Sequence record: NC_028943.1
Origin: Escherichia phage pro483
Strand: one strand, 5' to 3'
DNA length: 29,237 nucleotides
Every line of letters begins with the position of its first letter. Position 1 is the first letter of the stretch. The position numbers were made by a program, and so were the translations under genes. Positions 3,450 to 22,449 of the stretch are shown piece by piece. The notes beneath the pieces were generated by a model. The model was not told the DNA's origin, searched no databases, and was given only the letters and a program-made list of their open reading frames with translations.

Positions 3450-3721
3450 GTATTCGTATTGAAATTGGCGAACGTTATGTCGTTACCAGTGACAGCTTTC
3501 AGTTTATTCTCCACGAGAAAAAGAGAGCTGAAAGCGGTAAAAACGCCGGTCAGGAATGGCTGGCGGTGGTTGGTTATTACCCGAAATTAGGCCAGCTCGT
3601 TTCCGGCCTGATGCATCACGATATTCTGACCGGAAGCGCAAAATCTTTTGCTGATTTAAACGCGCAGGTTGAGCAACTCAGCAAGCGTTGTTCAGAGGCT
3701 TTTGGCTCATATGGCCGTTAA
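3446..3721 (+). CDS. Hypothetical protein (P2 orf83 position)
   Basis: 91-aa ORF overlapping the upstream stop and the gene A start. Confidence 0.6.
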   Translation: MSIRIEIGERYVVTSDSFQFILHEKKRAESGKNAGQEWLAVVGYYPKLGQLVSGLMHHDILTGSAKSFADLNAQVEQLSKRCSEAFGSYGR

Positions 3722-5882
3722 AGCCTCCGGGCGTTTTGTCCCTCCGTCAGCATTTACCGCAGGCACCGGTAAGGCGTTTACCGGTGCTTATGCATGGAAC
3801 GCGCCACGCGAGGCTGTCGGGCGCGAAAGACCTCTTACACGTGACGAGATGCGTCAGGTGCAAGGTGTTTTATCCACGATTAACCGCCTGCCTTACTTTT
3901 TGCGCTCGCTGTTTACTTCACGCTATGACTACATCCGGCGCAATAAAAGCCCGGTGCACGGGTTTTATTTCCTCACATCTACTTTTCAGCGTCGTTTATG
4001 GCCGCGCATTGAGCGTGTGAATCAGCGCCATGAAATGAACACCGACGCGTCGTTGCTGTTTCTGGCAGAGCGTGACCACTATGCGCGCCTGCCGGGAATG
4101 AATGACAAGGAGCTGAAAAAGTTTGCCGCCCGTATCTCATCGCAGCTTTTCATGATGTATGAGGAACTCTGCGATGCATGGGTTGATGCGCATGGTGAAA
4201 AAGAATCGCTGTTTACGGATGAGGCGCAGGCTCACCTGTATGGTCATGTTGCTGGCGCTGCACGTGCTTTCAATATTTCCCCGCTCTACTGGAAAAAATA
4301 CCGTAAAGGACAGATGACCACGAGGCAGGCATATTCTGCCATTGCCCGTCTGTTTAACGATGAGTGGTGGACTCATCAGCTTAAAGGCCAGCGTATGCGC
4401 TGGCATGAAGCGTTACTGATAGCTGTCGGGGAGGTCAATAAAGACCGTTCTCCTTATGCCAGTAAACACGCCATTCGTGATGTGCGTGCGCGCCGCCAGG
4501 CAAATCTGGAATTTCTTAAATCGTGTGACCTTGAAAACAGGGAAACCGGCGAGCGCATCGACCTTATCAGTAAGGTGATGGGCAGTATTTCTAATCCTGA
4601 AATTCGCCGGATGGAGCTGATGAACACCATTGCCGGTATTGAGCGTTACGCCGCTGCAGAGGGTGATGTGGGGATGTTTATCACGCTGACCGCGCCGTCA
4701 AAGTATCACCCGACACGTCAGGTAGGAAAAGGCGAAAGTAAAACCGTGCAGCTTAATCACGGCTGGAACGATGAGGCATTTAATCCAAAGGATGCGCAGC
4801 GTTATCTCTGCCGTATCTGGAGCCTGATGCGCACGGCATTCAAGGATAATGATTTACAGGTCTACGGTTTGCGTGTCGTCGAGCCACACCACGACGGAAC
4901 GCCGCACTGGCATATGATGCTTTTTTGTAATTCACGCCAGCGTAACCAGATTATCGAAATCATGCGTCGCTATGCGCTCAAAGAGGATGGCGACGAAAGA
5001 GGAGCCGCGCGAAACCGTTTTCAGGCAAAACACCTTAACCGGGGCGGTGCTGCGGGATATATCGCGAAATACATTTCAAAAAACATCGACGGCTATGCAC
5101 TGGATGGTCAGCTCGATAACGACACCGGCAGGCCGCTGAAAGACACTGCAGCGGCTGTTACCGCATGGGCGTCAACGTGGCGCATCCCGCAATTTAAAAC
5201 GGTTGGCCTGCCGACAATGGGGGCTTACCGTGAACTACGCAAATTGCCGCGCGGCGTCAGCATTGCTGATGAGTTTGACGAGCGCGTCGAGGCTGCACGC
5301 GCCGCCGCAGACAGTGGTGATTTTGCGTTGTATATCAGCGCGCAGGGTGGGGCAAATGTCCCGCGCGATTGTCAGACTGTCAGAGTCGCCCGTAGCCCGT
5401 CGGATGAAGTTAACGAGTACGAGGAAGAAGTCGAGAGAGTGGTCGGCATTTACGCGCCGCATCTCGGCGCGCGTCATATTCATATCACCAGAACGACGGA
5501 CTGGCGCATTGTTCCGAAAGTGCCGGTCGTTGAGCCTTTGACTTTAAAAAGCGGCATCGCCGCGCCTCGGAGTCCTGTCAATAACTGTGGAAAGTTCACC
5601 GGCGGTGACGTTCCGGTTATGCACCCTACACCGTCTGAGCATGCCGCAGCGGTGTTAAATCTGGTTGATAGTGGTGTTATCGGATGGGATGACCCGGAAG
5701 TTGTGACGGTGCTCAGGAGTGCATTAAAACATGGTGCACCGAGACCGAATTGGCAACAAAGAAACTGCGAACCATTAAAACCGTACCAGATAGCGCCATC
5801 AGGGCGGATGACAAAGGCTGAACGTTCGCAGATTCCACGCATCCATTTCGAGCTGGCACTAATTGGTAAAACCTATCAATAG
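3711..5882 (+). CDS. A: Replication initiation endonuclease A (rolling-circle nickase, P2 gpA)
   Basis: Start taken at ATG 3711 (MAVKASGRFVPP..., matching the remembered P2 A N-terminus); 723 aa, against about 761 aa remembered for P2 A; the 3' end abuts the AT-rich cargo. Confidence 0.9.
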   Translation: MAVKASGRFVPPSAFTAGTGKAFTGAYAWNAPREAVGRERPLTRDEMRQVQGVLSTINRLPYFLRSLFTSRYDYIRRNKSPVHGFYFLTSTFQRRLWPRIERVNQRHEMNTDASLLFLAERDHYARLPGMNDKELKKFAARISSQLFMMYEELCDAWVDAHGEKESLFTDEAQAHLYGHVAGAARAFNISPLYWKKYRKGQMTTRQAYSAIARLFNDEWWTHQLKGQRMRWHEALLIAVGEVNKDRSPYASKHAIRDVRARRQANLEFLKSCDLENRETGERIDLISKVMGSISNPEIRRMELMNTIAGIERYAAAEGDVGMFITLTAPSKYHPTRQVGKGESKTVQLNHGWNDEAFNPKDAQRYLCRIWSLMRTAFKDNDLQVYGLRVVEPHHDGTPHWHMMLFCNSRQRNQIIEIMRRYALKEDGDERGAARNRFQAKHLNRGGAAGYIAKYISKNIDGYALDGQLDNDTGRPLKDTAAAVTAWASTWRIPQFKTVGLPTMGAYRELRKLPRGVSIADEFDERVEAARAAADSGDFALYISAQGGANVPRDCQTVRVARSPSDEVNEYEEEVERVVGIYAPHLGARHIHITRTTDWRIVPKVPVVEPLTLKSGIAAPRSPVNNCGKFTGGDVPVMHPTPSEHAAAVLNLVDSGVIGWDDPEVVTVLRSALKHGAPRPNWQQRNCEPLKPYQIAPSGRMTKAERSQIPRIHFELALIGKTYQ

Positions 5883-5985
5883 TGATTTAATGAAATTTCG
5901 GAGTCATAAATATTGTGTATTTAACTAGATGATTGCAATATAAGTGCTTATTATTTATGCGATTATAGCCATAACGGAGCTGAGT

Positions 5986-6915
5986 ATGAGTGTTGCAAGG
6001 CATCATCATTTTTTATCCCAATGTTATTTGAAAGGGTTTACAAGTAATGGGGGGAAAAAATCAAAATTAACTGTAATAGATTTAAAGGAGCGCAAAACCT
6101 TTGAGAGTAATACTCGCAATGTCGGGGGGGTTAGAGATTTCAACCGATTAGAATTGGATGGAGTTGACCCAAACTATCTCGAGAGTTCTCTTGCAGAGTT
6201 TGAAGGCAGTGTCGCTACTCATTTAAGAAAACTTGAGGAGGGGGGCGAGTTTTCAGGCGAAACCAAAGATGTTATTCTGGAGTTTATTTCCTTATTGGCA
6301 ATACGTACGCCTGCTCAGCGAGAACATTTATCATCTCCATTGAAACAAATAGCAAAGTTTATCATGAAATCCTCAGTTAGTTCGGCTGAGCGTTGGGACG
6401 ATTGCAAATTAGCTTATGAGAAAGAAATGGGTGAGTCTTTGCCATATGATCTCGCTTACGAAAAAATTAAAAATTTTGTGGATGGGGATAATTTCGAAAT
6501 CAATGTAATCAGAGAGTTCATGATAGATATGGAAATGAAATGTGTACCTGTTATCACCAAGTTGTTGCATCAACGCAACTGGTCACTTATGACCATATCT
6601 GATGGGCAAGGGTCATTTATAACTTCAGATAACCCAGTTTGCTTAATGTGGACTAATCCTGAATTAGCACGAGGCCCTTATTCCCCCGGGTTTGGTGTAA
6701 AAGACACTTTAGTTTTGTTCCCAGTATCAAAAAACCTTCTTTTGGCGGGCGAGTTTGATGGTCATGAGGGTGTATTCAGTTGTAATGAGGAGCAGGCTGC
6801 GGTCTTCAATACTTCAGTCATTCGGCATACCGCAGAAAGAATATTTTCATCTAATGATAATTTCAAATTTTTAGACTCATCTAAAAAAATGAAGCAAGGC
6901 AAAAGCCTGGTTTGA
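5986..6915 (+). CDS. Cargo gene in the P2 tin/old hotspot: DUF4238-like protein, candidate single-gene anti-phage defence
   Basis: 309 aa from ATG 5986 (GGAG 6 nt upstream); N-terminal HHFLSQCYLKGFT and internal FITSDNPVCLMW resemble the DUF4238 (PF14022) signature from memory; strongly AT-rich against GC-rich flanks; located between A and cos. Confidence 0.75.
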   Translation: MSVARHHHFLSQCYLKGFTSNGGKKSKLTVIDLKERKTFESNTRNVGGVRDFNRLELDGVDPNYLESSLAEFEGSVATHLRKLEEGGEFSGETKDVILEFISLLAIRTPAQREHLSSPLKQIAKFIMKSSVSSAERWDDCKLAYEKEMGESLPYDLAYEKIKNFVDGDNFEINVIREFMIDMEMKCVPVITKLLHQRNWSLMTISDGQGSFITSDNPVCLMWTNPELARGPYSPGFGVKDTLVLFPVSKNLLLAGEFDGHEGVFSCNEEQAAVFNTSVIRHTAERIFSSNDNFKFLDSSKKMKQGKSLV

Positions 6916-7130
6916 TAGCGGTTTTTCTATGATTTTACTAGGAGAATTCTACCCTTAATCAGTGTGTTTAAAATGATTAATTGTCATAACATTTTTTCAT
7001 TTTTAGGTGTGCCTAGAAATGCATTCAATTGCATGCGTTTTCCTCCCCTGTTGCGTCTGAGCGCCACCAGTGCCGGCGCGCCTCCGGTGTATTCGTGCAC
7101 CTGCATTAAAACCGACCCATAAAGCGGGCA

Positions 7131-7149
7131 GGCGAGGCGGGGATAGCAC
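7131..7149. other. cos: cos site (cohesive-end sequence), ggcgaggcggggatagcac
   Basis: One mismatch to the remembered P2 19-nt cohesive end GGCGAGGCGGGGAAAGCAC; correct position between the cargo locus and Q. Confidence 0.7.
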
Positions 7150-7290
7150 TGCGCGCTGGCGGTGGTGCTGATTTTATTTTTTCAGCGTCTGAGCGCGTCG
7201 TGATGGCGTTTAGATTGTTCGCCGGGGCGTTGGTGTGTCTGCGGGATGTTTTGTGCGGTGGTGAGCGTGTGAGGGCGTGATGACAGGGTG

Positions 7291-7317: not shown

Positions 7318-8352
7318 TCAGCCGTTGTCAGTGTCCAGTGAGTAGTTTTTAAAGCGGATGACCTCCTGACCGAGCCAGCCGTTTATTTCCCGAATCCTGT
7401 CCTGTAACGGGATAAGCTCATTGCGGACAAAGACCTTTGCCACTTTCTCAATATCACCCAGCGACCCGACGTTCTCCGGCTTGCCGCCCATCAACTGAAA
7501 GGGGATGCGGTGCGCGTCCAGCAGGTCAGCGGCGCTGGCTTTTTTGATATTAAAAAAATCGTCCTTCGTTGCCACTTCACTGAGCGGGATAATTTTAATG
7601 CCGTCGGCTTTCCCCTGCGGGGCATAGAGAAACAGATTTTTAAAGTTGTTGCGGCCTTTCGACTTGACCATGTTTTCGCGAAGCATTTCGATATCGTTGC
7701 GATCCTGCACGGCATCGGTGACGTACATGATATATCCGGCATGAGCGCCGTTTTCGTAATACTTGCGGCGGAACAGCGTGGCCGACTCATTCAGCCAGGC
7801 AGAATTAAGGGCGCTGAGATATTCCGGCAGGCCGTACAGCTCCTGATTAATATCCGGCTCCAGCAGGTGAAACACGGAGCCGGGCGCGAAGGCTGTCGGC
7901 TCGTTGAAGGACGGCACCCACCAGTAAACATCCTCCTCCACGCCACGGCGGGTATATTTTGCCGGTGAGGTTTCCAGTCTGATGACCTTACCGGTGGTGC
8001 TGTAACGCTTTTCCAGAAACGCATTACCGAACACCAGAAAATCCAGCACAAAGCGGCTGAAATCCTGCTGGGAAAGCCACGGGTGCGGAATAAACGTTGA
8101 AGCCAGAATATTACGTTTGACGTAAATCGGTGAGCTGTGATGTACGGCAGCACGCAGGCTTTTTGCCAGACCGGTAAAGCTGACCGGTGGCTCATACCAT
8201 CTGCCGTTACTGATGCACTCGACGTAATCCAGAATGTCACGGCGGTCGAGTACCGGCACCGGTTCACCAAAGGTGAATGCCTCCATTTTCGGGGCGCTGG
8301 CGGTCATTTTTTTTGCCGCAGGTTGCGGTGTTTTCCCTTTTTTCTTGCTCAT
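7318..8352 (-). CDS. Q: Portal protein (P2 gpQ)
   Basis: 344 aa; position and orientation as P2 Q; start overlaps the P stop (ATGA). Confidence 0.93.
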   Translation of the reverse strand: MSKKKGKTPQPAAKKMTASAPKMEAFTFGEPVPVLDRRDILDYVECISNGRWYEPPVSFTGLAKSLRAAVHHSSPIYVKRNILASTFIPHPWLSQQDFSRFVLDFLVFGNAFLEKRYSTTGKVIRLETSPAKYTRRGVEEDVYWWVPSFNEPTAFAPGSVFHLLEPDINQELYGLPEYLSALNSAWLNESATLFRRKYYENGAHAGYIMYVTDAVQDRNDIEMLRENMVKSKGRNNFKNLFLYAPQGKADGIKIIPLSEVATKDDFFNIKKASAADLLDAHRIPFQLMGGKPENVGSLGDIEKVAKVFVRNELIPLQDRIREINGWLGQEVIRFKNYSLDTDNG

Positions 8353-18457: not shown

Positions 18458-19061
18458 TTCGCGCCTGCTGCCGACCGGCTCATCACCGCTTGAAGTTGCC
18501 GCCGCAAAAGCCTGTGCGGAAATTGAAAAAACGCCGGTCAGTATTCGTGAGCTGTGGAACCCGGACACCTGCCCGGCAAATCTGCTGCCGTGGCTGGCGT
18601 GGTCATTTTCGGTTGACCGCTGGGATGATAAGTGGCCGGAAGCGACAAAACGCGCTGTTATCCGCGATGCGTATTTCATTCACTGCCATAAGGGCACTAT
18701 TGGTGCGATTCGCCGTGTGGTGGAGCCGCTCGGCTATCTGATTGAGGTGAGGGAGTGGTGGCAGCTCAACGAGGAGCCGGGGACGTTCCGCATCGTTGTT
18801 GGCGTGCTTGAGCAGGGTATTACCGAGGAAATGTATCAGGAGCTGGAGCGTCTCGTTGCTGATGCAAAACCTGCAAGCCGCCATCTGACGGGACTGGCTA
18901 TCAGTTTAAGTACAACCGGCAACATTTTTGCCGGTGCGGGATGCTATCACGGCGACGCCCTGACGGTTTATCCCTACACCCCGGAGGCCATTATTGTCGG
19001 AGGGGATTATTTCCCGGCCTCGGCCATTCATTTAATTGATAACCTGAGAGTAAACGCATGA
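18450..19061 (+). CDS. I: Baseplate / tail protein I
   Basis: 203 aa (P2 I is about 176 aa from memory); overlaps J and H in the operon. Confidence 0.85.
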   Translation: MSDSRLLPTGSSPLEVAAAKACAEIEKTPVSIRELWNPDTCPANLLPWLAWSFSVDRWDDKWPEATKRAVIRDAYFIHCHKGTIGAIRRVVEPLGYLIEVREWWQLNEEPGTFRIVVGVLEQGITEEMYQELERLVADAKPASRHLTGLAISLSTTGNIFAGAGCYHGDALTVYPYTPEAIIVGGDYFPASAIHLIDNLRVNA

Positions 19062-20257
19062 CAGTGAAATACTACGCCATTCTGACTAATCAGGGCGCGG
19101 CACGGCTGGCTAACGCGACGATGCTCGGCAGTAAGCTGAATCTGACGCAAATGGCCGTTGGTGATGCAAATGGTGTGTTACCAACACCAGACCCTGCACA
19201 AACAAAACTGATTAACCAGAAACGCATTGCACCGCTGAATCTTCTGAGTGTTGACCCGAATAACCAGAGCCAGATTATTGCGGAGCAAATCATCCCTGAG
19301 AACGAGGGCGGATTCTGGATCCGTGAGATTGGGCTTTATGATGATGAAGGCGTACTCATTGCGGTGGCAAACTGCCCGGAAACGTACAAACCGCAGTTGC
19401 AGGAAGGAAGCGGTCGTACCCAGACTATCCGCATGATTCTGGTTGTCTCGAATACCGAAGCCATCACGCTGAAAATCGATCCGTCGGTGGTACTGGCGAC
19501 CCGTAAATACGTGGATGATGAAGTCCTGGAATTAAGGCTGTATGTGGATGACCAGATGAGAAACCACATTGCCGCACAGGATCCTCATACCCAGTATGCA
19601 CAGAAACATAATCCGACATTTACCGGAGAACCAAAAGCGCCGACGCCTGCCGCAGGAAATAACACCACGCGGATTGCGACCACTGCGTTTGTTCAGGCCG
19701 CTATTACCGCTCTGATTAACGGTGCGCCAGCCACGCTGGACACACTGAAAGAAATTGCCGCAGCCATTAACAATGACCCGAAATTCAGCACCACCATTAA
19801 CAATGCGCTGTCAGGTAAGCAGCCACTGGATGAGACGCTGACTCATTTGAGCGGAAAGGATGTTGCCGGCCTTCTCGCATACCTTGGTTTGGGAGAAGCG
19901 GCAAAACGGGATGTAGGGACAGGGGAAAATCAGATACCGGACATGGCCTCGTTTGCCAGTGGTGATGGATGGATGAAATTACCCAACGGGAAAATCCTGC
20001 AATATGGTCGTGGTGCGGTTACGCCGACATTATCGACGCAAACAATGAGAATTACATTCAGCATCCCTTTTCCTAAAAAAGTGGACTGCGCCATGCTTAC
20101 TCATTCTGGTGATGGTGGTGCGCCTTTAGGTGCTGGGCGGGGATTCGTGATGACCGCAGAAGGCCCAACATTAACCGGTTTTAATTCTGCTTACAGAACG
20201 TCATCAACCAGCGACACGGTATCGATGAATTACAGTTGGTGGGCTGTTGGTGAGTAA
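19058..20257 (+). CDS. H: Tail fibre protein H (constant N-terminal part plus currently expressed variable C-terminal module Hv)
   Basis: 399 aa; N-terminus MTVKYYAILTNQGAARLANA... is P2 H-like; a 26-bp recombination site sits in-frame at codons LAYLGLGE (19872-19897). Confidence 0.9.
   Translation: MTVKYYAILTNQGAARLANATMLGSKLNLTQMAVGDANGVLPTPDPAQTKLINQKRIAPLNLLSVDPNNQSQIIAEQIIPENEGGFWIREIGLYDDEGVLIAVANCPETYKPQLQEGSGRTQTIRMILVVSNTEAITLKIDPSVVLATRKYVDDEVLELRLYVDDQMRNHIAAQDPHTQYAQKHNPTFTGEPKAPTPAAGNNTTRIATTAFVQAAITALINGAPATLDTLKEIAAAINNDPKFSTTINNALSGKQPLDETLTHLSGKDVAGLLAYLGLGEAAKRDVGTGENQIPDMASFASGDGWMKLPNGKILQYGRGAVTPTLSTQTMRITFSIPFPKKVDCAMLTHSGDGGAPLGAGRGFVMTAEGPTLTGFNSAYRTSSTSDTVSMNYSWWAVGE
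19872..19897. repeat. Left crossover site for the DNA invertase (gix/hix/cix-like), TTCTCGCATACC-TT-GGTTTGGGAGAA
   Basis: 26-bp pseudo-palindrome resembling hixL/gix sites (TTxTC..AAACC / GGTTT..GAxAA); inverted relative to the site at 21775-21800 with the GGTTTGGGAGAA half identical. Confidence 0.65.
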
Positions 20258-20277
20258 TTTTATTCAGGGTGATTTAT

Positions 20278-20721
20278 ATGAACGAATATGTTTATAGCGC
20301 AAGGCATAATGCTTTTTTCCCTGTGGATATGATTGATAAATATAAATCAGAGGGATGGGATTTATCAGACGCTAAGGAAGTAAATCAAAATATTATCAGT
20401 GAGTTTATGGCTGAACCGCCACAAGGAAAAATCCGTATTGCCGGAGATGATGGGCTGCCTGCGTGGGCAGATATTCCTCCACCCACGCATGAAGAGCTTA
20501 TTGAAATTACTGAATCAGAAAGACAGCTACTAATTAACCAGGCCAACGAATACATGAACAGTAAGCAATGGCCCGGTAAAGCCGCTATTGGTCGTCTGAA
20601 AGGTGAGGAACTGGCGCAATATAATTTGTGGCTGGATTATCTGGATGCACTGGAGCTGGTTGATACCTCCAGTGCACCAGATATTGAATGGCCTACGCCT
20701 CCGGCAGTTCAGGCCAGATGA
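20278..20721 (+). CDS. G: Tail fibre assembly chaperone G (orientation currently expressed)
   Basis: 147 aa from ATG 20278 (the ORF track starts at GTG 20269); C-terminus ...LWLDYLDALELVDTSSAPDIEWPTPP resembles the conserved tail-fibre-assembly C-terminal motif; AT-rich 5' half. Confidence 0.8.
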   Translation: MNEYVYSARHNAFFPVDMIDKYKSEGWDLSDAKEVNQNIISEFMAEPPQGKIRIAGDDGLPAWADIPPPTHEELIEITESERQLLINQANEYMNSKQWPGKAAIGRLKGEELAQYNLWLDYLDALELVDTSSAPDIEWPTPPAVQAR

Positions 20722-21295
20722 CATCCGGCGCGGTGCTGGTATCTGTTGCCGTCACCGCGTCAATGTAATCCAGCACAGCGTTAAGTCTGGTTGTTTCTGC
20801 CTGCGTCAACTTCCGTCCGGCCTGTAATTTCAGCTGAATCAGACTAATGGAAGCCATTGCTGCATCAATCAGTGACTGGCGCTGTGCTTCTGCCGCGTCT
20901 ACTGCGGCACTATGCTGTGCCTCAGTATCCGTCACCCATTTCTCACCATCCCATTTATCATATGGCGTTAACGGGGCGATAGTGGTTGTATTTTCAGGGT
21001 AATCACCCGGAGCTGTGATTTCTTTCGATTCTCCTGTTTCGGTGCTATAGATGATTTCACCGCGATGGTCTGGCACATATTCCCATGAGTTAAAATCTGC
21101 AGAACGGCAGATTGCATAACCAGCTTTGTATGCGCCTGGGGCATCTAAACAGGAATATGCCGGAATGCCGACACCAATAGCAAGATATTCAGTTGAGGCT
21201 GAAATATATTCCCAACTCATGACATCAAAGTTATAAACAGTAATTTCTCCTGCCATAGTGGCAATTAATTCACTGTTTAATTCTGCGTTATTCAT
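20693..21295 (-). CDS. Alternative tail fibre assembly chaperone G' (partner of Hv')
   Basis: 200 aa on the opposite strand; C-terminus ...LNAVLDYIDAVTATDTSTAPDVIWPELPEA shares the motif with G; converges tail-to-tail with G (29-bp overlap). Confidence 0.8.
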   Translation of the reverse strand: MNNAELNSELIATMAGEITVYNFDVMSWEYISASTEYLAIGVGIPAYSCLDAPGAYKAGYAICRSADFNSWEYVPDHRGEIIYSTETGESKEITAPGDYPENTTTIAPLTPYDKWDGEKWVTDTEAQHSAAVDAAEAQRQSLIDAAMASISLIQLKLQAGRKLTQAETTRLNAVLDYIDAVTATDTSTAPDVIWPELPEA

Positions 21296-21786
21296 TATGC
21301 AGCCCTCACAATATAGTTAAAAGCGACATTTCGTGGGCGTGTTTCATTCGCACCTGCAGGTTTAGTCGTTGCCGCAACAACACCACCCTCTGTAATAGCC
21401 GGGTTGGGAATTGGGTAATTATCGAAGTCAATGGCCGGAGACAGGGGCTTGATTTGTTTTAAAATCGTGGTGCCTGTAAAACTTTCCAGAGTCTGGTCGT
21501 TAGTTCGTGAAGTCCAGATTCCCCAATAGTGGTTATGACTGACAATCGCACCGTCCTGAAGCGTTAATAATCCCCTTCCGTTATCCACTCCACGCCCATC
21601 ATCCCAGCCACGAATAAACTCACCGCGTAAATCAGGCAATTTATTTGTCGGGTAAACCTTTGCCAGTTCCGGGTATTCTTCAGCAGAAAAAGCCGCCCCG
21701 TTGCATTTCAGCCAGCCTGTCGGCGGAGTGGCTGAAGGCCACGGAACAGGCACACCGACGGGTAATGCCGAACCTTCTCCCAAACC
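21295..21786 (-). CDS. Alternative tail-fibre C-terminal module Hv' (promoterless; fused to the H constant region only after inversion)
   Basis: ORF of 177 aa on the track, but the functional part starts at the crossover (codons GLGE at 21775-21786); contains a tail-collar-like motif (WLKCNGAAFSAEEYPELAKVY...LPDLRGEF); same codon phase as H across the shared GGTTTGGGAGAA. Confidence 0.7.
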   Translation of the reverse strand, partial: GLGEGSALPVGVPVPWPSATPPTGWLKCNGAAFSAEEYPELAKVYPTNKLPDLRGEFIRGWDDGRGVDNGRGLLTLQDGAIVSHNHYWGIWTSRTNDQTLESFTGTTILKQIKPLSPAIDFDNYPIPNPAITEGGVVAATTKPAGANETRPRNVAFNYIVRAA

Positions 21787-21800
21787 AACGTTTATGAAAA
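21775..21800. repeat. Right crossover site for the DNA invertase, TTCTCCCAAACC-AA-CGTTTATGAAAA
   Basis: Reverse complement TTTTCATAAACG-TT-GGTTTGGGAGAA shares the full right half with the left site; lies 56 bp upstream of the invertase start. Confidence 0.65.
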
Positions 21801-21855
21801 TGCAGAGATAACGGGTAACTGGCATCATCTCCGGTTTTTATTCAGGGGGATGCTC

Positions 21856-22449
21856 ATGCTTATTGGCTATGTACGCGTGTCAACAAATGACCAGAACACG
21901 GAATTGCAGCGTAACGCGCTGGAGTGCGCAGGATGTGAGCTGATTTTTGAGGATAAAATCAGCGGCACTAAGTCCGACCGACCGGGACTGAAAAAACTGC
22001 TCAGGACATTATCGGAGGGGGATACACTGGTGGTCTGGAAGCTGGACAGGCTGGGGCGTAATATGCGGCATCTGGTCATTCTGGTTGAGGAACTGCGCGA
22101 ACGCGGCGTTAATTTTCGCAGCCTGACGGATGCTATTGATACCAGCACGCCGATGGGGCGTTTTTTCTTTCATGTGATGGGTGCCCTGGCTGAAATGGAA
22201 CGAGAACTCATTGTCGAGCGGACTCGGGCCGGGCTGGAAGCGGCCAGAGCCAAAGGTCGTATTGGTGGCAGACGTCCTAAACTCTCCACGAGTGAGTGGG
22301 AGCAGGCCGGGCGTTTGCTGGCTGCAGGGGAGTCACGTCAACGCGTGGCACTGATTTTTGATATTGGTCTGTCCACGCTCTATAAAAAATTCCCCTCATC
22401 AGCGACAAAGAATAAATTGTGTCATCCCTTAACCAACCGGGACAAATAG
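21856..22449 (+). CDS. Serine DNA invertase (Gin/Pin/Hin/Cin family)
   Basis: N-terminus MLIGYVRVSTNDQNTELQRNAL... with catalytic serine context and C-terminal HTH, closely resembling Gin/Pin; start at ATG 21856 (GGGGGA Shine-Dalgarno spacing fits better than ATG 21850). Confidence 0.9.
   Translation: MLIGYVRVSTNDQNTELQRNALECAGCELIFEDKISGTKSDRPGLKKLLRTLSEGDTLVVWKLDRLGRNMRHLVILVEELRERGVNFRSLTDAIDTSTPMGRFFFHVMGALAEMERELIVERTRAGLEAARAKGRIGGRRPKLSTSEWEQAGRLLAAGESRQRVALIFDIGLSTLYKKFPSSATKNKLCHPLTNRDK

Follow-up and report, generated by a model that had tools for sequence, protein, structure and literature searches.

What is the single AT-rich gene between gene A and cos of this P2-like phage, and what could it do there? 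The window, which is the whole stretch of 29,237 nt analyzed here, carries one gene of the DUF4238 family at this position. By sequence comparison, this gene is very probably the stand-alone anti-phage gene Rst_DUF4238, an AT-rich cargo that is exchanged horizontally and occupies the A-cos-Q hotspot of P2-like phages. A publication of 2022 already covers the gene, its slot and its phenotype, and the gene is detected by DefenseFinder as well as by PADLOC. The finding counts as known because Rousset et al. (2022; PMC9122126) cover the family, the slot, the T7 phenotype and this exact accession. We therefore describe the evidence for the assignment, the movement of the gene between phages and a possible mode of action, and we compare the gene with related systems.

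The gene is found in a plus-strand ORF (positions 5944 to 6915 in the six-frame ORF list), in which an in-frame ATG at 5986 gives a soluble protein of 309 aa (34.9 kDa, pI 6.0). We assigned the start to this ATG because a GGAG sequence lies upstream of it, the RefSeq annotation of identical DNA uses the same start, and all homologs compared begin at its Met. The GC content is 0.373 in the region 5883 to 7035 versus 0.536 in the rest of the window. This region is the lowest-GC stretch of 1.15 kb in the window, 3.2 SD under the mean. The motif HHFLSQCYLKGF forms residues 7 to 18 of the protein and the motif TSDNPV residues 213 to 218. The initial annotation, made from the letters alone, had described a 309-aa gene alone in the slot, a low GC content and these N-terminal and internal motifs; the ORF list, the RefSeq start, the Shine-Dalgarno sequence and the base composition agree with it in each respect.

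In a Pfam search, the protein matched DUF4238 (PF14022) with 135.1 bits and E = 4.2e-39, with residues 7 to 291 aligned to positions 2 to 280 of the 281-position model. The gathering threshold of PF14022 is 27 bits, and the protein is above it over the full model. DUF4238 is the sole Pfam match. The PADLOC model PDLC03000 (DUF4238-Pers) gave 725.5 bits over positions 1 to 309 of 309, which is essentially a self-match. In PHROGs, the protein belongs to phrog_29785 (function unknown, 741 bits); an NCBIfam search with it gave no match. WP_001515549.1, which is encoded by identical DNA in a P2-like prophage, is annotated as DUF4238. No sequence or structural similarity was detected to the catalytic domains of known nuclease, NTPase or NADase effector families (PD-(D/E)xK, HNH, HEPN, TOPRIM, TIR, SIR2, P-loop), and diverse DUF4238 members showed no weak recurring Pfam or PADLOC matches. 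The protein has no transmembrane segment (maximum Kyte-Doolittle 19-residue mean 1.09, GRAVY -0.34) and is not of the membrane-acting effector type. The HMM searches, the domain searches and the hydropathy values thus uphold the initial guess of a DUF4238 protein with no nuclease, ATPase or transmembrane signature.

The family has been found in the same slot before. Rousset et al. (2022; PMC9122126) described the locus between gpA and gpQ in E. coli P2-like prophages, where 18,150 loci showed 1,650 gene arrangements, and they cloned eight of the systems found there. The DUF4238 gene of the E. coli TA007 P2 hotspot (pFR101) conferred strong T7 resistance. In that work the gene was cloned alone, with its native upstream DNA, in a low-copy vector; the DNA and protein sequences of pFR101 are given in their Table S2A (PMC9122126). 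The TA007 phenotype comes from a plaque assay with eight phages only, and protection was reported against T7 alone (PMC9122126). WP_001515549, the exact protein of the window, is repeatedly present in the hotspot census of that paper, one entry of which reads 'DUF4238 + hypothetical'. Partition systems and cytolethal distending toxin are examples of non-defense cargo that the P2 hotspot also carries (PMC9122126). A 2024 survey placed Rst_DUF4238 among the systems without assignment to any known domain family. In a literature search we found no mechanism of DUF4238 defense; the matches to 'PF14022' were Plasmodium gene identifiers. The description of the family as a reported single-gene defense of unknown mechanism, given in the initial annotation, is therefore correct.

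Table 1. Positions of the hotspot features and of the tail-fiber module in the window
Feature	Coordinates	Strand	Remarks
P2 gene A (replication endonuclease)	3711-5882	+	Left hotspot border; Phage_GPA, 412 bits
Exchanged block	5550-7120		99-100% identical in L019, flanks 66-81%
Variable cassette	5845-7019		Homology stops at 5800-5844 and is back at 7020-7098 (three P2-like phages)
31-nt block TCATAAATATTGTGTATTTAACTAGATGATT	5904-5934	+	Identical in TA007 insert amid diverged non-coding DNA
Shine-Dalgarno GGAG	5976-5979	+	6 nt before ATG 5986; also kept in the active TA007 insert
DUF4238 gene	5986-6915	+	309 aa; WP_001515549.1; Rst_DUF4238 / PADLOC DUF4238-Pers
cos-like 19-mer GGCGAGGCGGGGATAGCAC	7131-7149		One mismatch to P2 GGCGAGGCGGGGAAAGCAC
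Portal gene Q	7318-8352	-	Right hotspot border (Pfam, RefSeq); followed by the terminase gene
Tail fiber gene	19058-20257	+	
Caudo_TAP chaperone	20269-20721	+	
Alternative chaperone	20693-21295	-	
Alternative fiber C-terminus	21295-21828	-	Collar domain
Serine invertase	21850-22449	+	Resolvase and HTH_7 domains

The borders of the hotspot and the elements within it are shown in Table 1. The start of gene A was taken from the RefSeq annotation of identical DNA; its ORF is open from a TTG at 3669. In E. coli NZ_CP062901, identical DNA forms part of a complete P2-like prophage with the gene order int-C-cox...A / DUF4238 / Q-P-O-N-M-L..., adjoining yegR. The P2 sequence that corresponds to the cos-like 19-mer is the P2 cohesive end. 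This P2 19-mer was taken from the P2 insert in Table S2A of PMC9122126. The window gene has both properties of P2 A-cos-Q hotspot cargo, that is the position between A and cos/Q and the variable content of the slot.

The 31-nt block upstream of the gene is a candidate promoter or regulatory element. A scan for the sigma-70 consensus found no plus-strand site upstream of the DUF4238 gene, and a recognizable promoter was rejected on this ground. A terminator or RNA structure downstream of the gene was also rejected, since the predicted fold is not better than those of shuffled sequences (z = -0.74). The cassette is flanked by a 23-nt imperfect direct repeat CATTAAAACCG... (5773 to 5795 and 7104 to 7126, 19 of 23 positions identical), the right copy of which lies within conserved cos-proximal sequence. 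We considered the repeat as a recombination site and rejected it. The repeat is probably a chance match, since other P2-like phages have the left copy in a poorly conserved form or lack it.

In another part of the window, positions 19058 to 22449 form a putative invertible tail-fiber module (Table 1). It looks like a host-range switch of the Gin/Cin/Pin type. P2 itself has Z/fun at this position.

Comparison with other P2-like phages confirmed the proposal that the A-cos slot holds variable cargo. We found 117 deposited P2-like phages that share the flanks at 95 to 97% identity and do not have the insert. The insert was sought both as DNA and as protein in 50,697 deposited phage records and was found in none of them. 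Other cargo in the slot of P2-like phages includes DUF4209, DUF3850 with a hypothetical protein, Fic/VbhT, and old-tin; the first three are the slot contents of the three phages that define the breakpoints of the variable cassette. Because homology to other P2-like phages ends at 5800 to 5844, the last 40 to 80 nt of gene A (within 5800 to 5882) belong to the variable segment. This gene A tail is homologous to the TA007 DUF4238 insert. Each cargo would thus supply its own gpA C-terminus.

The cassette was found in 14 of 5,426 complete E. coli genomes, in all cases with at least 99.7% identity, and the P2-like cos-Q flank was found in 1,711 of the same 5,426 genomes. The DUF4238 cassette is rare in E. 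coli. In IMG/VR, eleven viral contigs encode relatives. Eight of these show 99.7 to 100% identity, two (L020 and L021) carry 92 to 93% identical alleles on a P2-like backbone in which gpA is 84% and gpQ ~80% identical, and the remaining one carries a 36% identical relative. Comparison of the window with contig L019 revealed an exchanged block of 1.6 kb that is almost identical between the two, with flanks much more diverged (Table 1); one nucleotide difference was found within the DUF4238 ORF. Besides the ORF, the block takes in ~100 nt on its upstream side and ~200 nt on its downstream side, and the crossovers lie in the 3' part of gene A and at cos. This difference in identity between block and flanks points to a recent move of the block between diverged P2-like phages. 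The 1.6-kb block is evidently a unit that is swapped between diverged P2-like backbones.

One contig, L012 (IMG/VR UViG_2711768052_000004), is otherwise a 97 to 99% identical P2-like contig and has an insertion of ~1.3 kb to the right of cos, at a point between window positions 7156 and 7178. Positions 5410 to 6411 of L012 encode a 333-aa protein with hydrophobic C-terminal segments; this ORF is absent from the window. The L012 arrangement may be the one recorded as 'DUF4238 + hypothetical' in the published census. The insertion would mark a second position for cargo, on the side of cos that faces Q.

The DUF4238 gene is under strong purifying selection. Compared with two 92 to 93% identical alleles, dS is 0.31 to 0.39 and dN is 0.036 to 0.041 (dN/dS 0.11 to 0.12), and in codons 1 to 86 dN/dS is 0 to 0.02. 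In the first 199 coding nt, all 14 differences from the TA007 insert are synonymous changes at the third position. Homologs with 38 to 54% identity are common in Gammaproteobacteria, and a second branch with ~20% identity is common in Alphaproteobacteria. PF14022 stands alone in almost all of the ~190 homologs listed, the full-length ones being 300 to 350 aa long, and no domain fusions were found among these ~190 homologs, which cover the two distant branches. DUF4238 relatives with 22 to 54% identity are also found on 25 plasmids. The neighbors in five plasmid contexts are integrases, IS elements, TA modules, a TIR protein and a TrlF-like ATPase; the genes directly beside the relatives show no relation to each other, and no neighbor gene is conserved across these five contexts and phage Smp131. 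In these data the DUF4238 gene always stands alone, with no conserved partner and no fusion. This agrees with the definition of Rst_DUF4238 / DUF4238-Pers as a single-gene system, and the window cassette also has one gene, with neighbors that are not conserved. Enterobacter NZ_CP091490, a 107-kb 'plasmid' classified as non-mobilizable, carries a DUF4238 gene with 54% identity in its region from 88 to 99 kb. The neighbors of this gene are of phage type (integrase, Gp49, PhoH, DNA ligase, YafO toxin), which suggests a phage-plasmid with similar cargo.

An AF2 model, for which 65 sequences were aligned, shows a mean pLDDT of 91 and a pTM of 0.87. The N-terminus of the model has strands at residues 6 to 8, 28 to 32, 37 to 41 and 48 to 50 and a short helix at 12 to 18. 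Five helices follow across residues 64 to 195, and the C-terminus is beta-rich (198 to 304) with one helix at 268 to 281. A Foldseek search of the PDB with this model gave no match (best E 0.08, TM at most 0.14), and PDB sequence and profile searches gave only chance matches to NusG (E ~0.5). In BFVD, V9IQH5 is the only significant Foldseek neighbor (E = 2e-10).

In a set of 53 sequences that covers both branches and reaches down to 18% identity, H8, L15, F18, D32, E66, E73, P109, W199, T213, G235 and N275 are invariant; Y14, D215 and P246 show a conservation of 90% or more in the same set. In the close subfamily, a conservation of at least 90% is reached by 29 of the first 60 columns, at the N-terminus, versus 18 of 136 columns in the helical part. 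The invariance of H8, D32, E66, E73, T213 and N275 suggests an enzyme center; these residues could also be merely structural. Three known motif types were tried and rejected. An HUH-type motif (H-U-H plus Tyr) does not fit since only H8 is invariant at depth, a Zn site with C13 does not fit since relatives have Phe or Tyr in its place, and PD-(D/E)xK does not fit since there is no invariant Lys.

How could such a protein act against T7? We propose that one polypeptide would both sense T7 infection and act. The N-terminal beta-meander, which is hyper-conserved, and the beta-region at the C-terminus would together form the active center, with H8, D32, E66, E73, T213 and N275 as its residues, along with Y14 and D215, which are near-invariant. 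Sets of His, Asp and Glu of this type are typically seen in metal-dependent hydrolases or transferases whose substrate is a phosphoester or a nucleotide. Specificity or regulation would come from the five-helix insert (64 to 195), which is more variable, together with the C-terminal surface; these parts would set when, or on what, the core acts. This enzyme-type reading is favored because the His/Asp/Glu/Glu(/Asp/Asn/Thr/Tyr) set is kept in hosts that never meet T7, and from such conservation a catalytic, probably metal-binding center would be expected. A self-contained enzyme-type effector that is triggered by T7 is our best reading of the protein, put forward tentatively; taken on its own, it is less likely than not to hold. 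It is possible, if short of probable, that DUF4238 represents a new enzyme fold without a solved relative, in which a single 35-kDa polypeptide combines sensing with an undescribed catalysis centered on the invariant His/Asp/Glu/Glu/Thr/Asn set. The swappable hotspot alleles differ in two parts of the protein, the helical insert and its C-terminal region, and in this way they could tune which phage is recognized.

The protein could instead be a non-enzymatic blocker that stops infection by stoichiometric binding to something specific to T7; possible targets are T7 RNA polymerase, the entering DNA end and an early host-takeover protein. In that case the invariant residues would have a structural role or form part of a binding surface. 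Protection reported only against T7 among eight phages fits one phage-specific target, and no catalytic family or fold has been recognized in the protein. However, the His/Asp/Glu/Glu/Thr/Asn set is shared without exception by sequences with as little as 18% identity, in hosts as different as Escherichia and Rhizobium that do not meet T7. Such wide conservation is not expected of a binding surface for one phage protein, and the most variable part of the protein is the helical insert, not the core. We consider a blocker unlikely. The presence of non-defense cargo in the same hotspot (PMC9122126 census) raises the question whether the gene is a moron whose main role is another service to prophage or host, such as a stress or metabolic enzyme or an addiction toxin, with the T7 phenotype of TA007 a by-product of plasmid-borne expression. 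Outside phages, members of the family are widely found on both plasmids and chromosomes, and the plus-strand scan found no promoter consensus upstream; both would be in keeping with a moron. It is nevertheless very unlikely, as the published test was carried out in a low-copy vector with native upstream DNA (PMC9122126), the neighbors of distant relatives are typical defense-island or mobile-element genes (TIR, TrlF-like ATPase, TA modules, integrases, IS), and the gene sits in the old/tin slot.

A hidden two-component system, with a small protein or RNA partner in the 100 nt of non-coding DNA upstream or the 200 nt downstream, is hardly probable at all. The exchanged block does include these non-coding stretches, the census has its 'DUF4238 + hypothetical' entry, and an additional ORF of 333 aa lies close to cos in L012. 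Against a partner, no ORF of at least 40 aa lies wholly in the cassette besides the antisense ORFs within the gene, the downstream RNA fold does not stand out from shuffles, no neighbor is conserved across relatives, and the extra ORF of L012 does not occur in the window. The remaining value of the locus is that DUF4238 is one of few validated single-gene defenses without a mechanism. It offers several handles for mechanistic work: a confident model without a PDB neighbor, a short list of invariant residues, two natural alleles that are 92% identical and differ only outside the N-terminal core, and the evidence for a 1.6-kb block that moves as a unit between P2-like phages.

Among known systems, P2 old and tin occupy the same slot between A and cos as the DUF4238 gene, and they too allow a prophage to exclude unrelated phages. 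Of the two, Old is a nuclease of the ATPase-TOPRIM type, and the target of Tin is the ssDNA-binding protein of T-even phages. Neither is related to DUF4238 in sequence or fold and, unlike Old, the DUF4238 protein has no recognizable ATPase, TOPRIM or other catalytic domain. The Stenotrophomonas phage Smp131 protein gp44 (V9IQH5) carries the annotation DUF4238 and shows a marginal Pfam DUF4238 match (27.5 bits), and H8, E66, E73, D215 and N275 still align in it. In its phage, which belongs to the Peduoviridae, it is likewise accessory cargo and is placed between the integrase/replication module and the portal gene. It differs in having only 12 to 18% identity to the window protein and in its neighbors (integrase and SRAP peptidase), and no phenotype has been reported for it. 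Smp131 gp44 is a distant second case of DUF4238 as cargo of a P2-type phage.

The closest system is the DUF4238 gene of TA007 (pFR101). The two proteins differ by 25 substitutions, all within residues 87 to 301, in the helical insert and the C-terminal beta-region, and none in invariant columns; these could change the specificity of the window allele or lead to its loss, the T7 phenotype being that of the TA007 allele. Both proteins belong to the same Pfam family and have 309 aa, and they are identical at 284 of 309 positions (92%) without gaps. Both genes are located directly after gene A in a P2-like prophage, with homologous upstream DNA, an identical Shine-Dalgarno sequence and the common 31-nt block. 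Read across from the 92% identical TA007 allele, the window allele is likely to defend its host against T7 as well.
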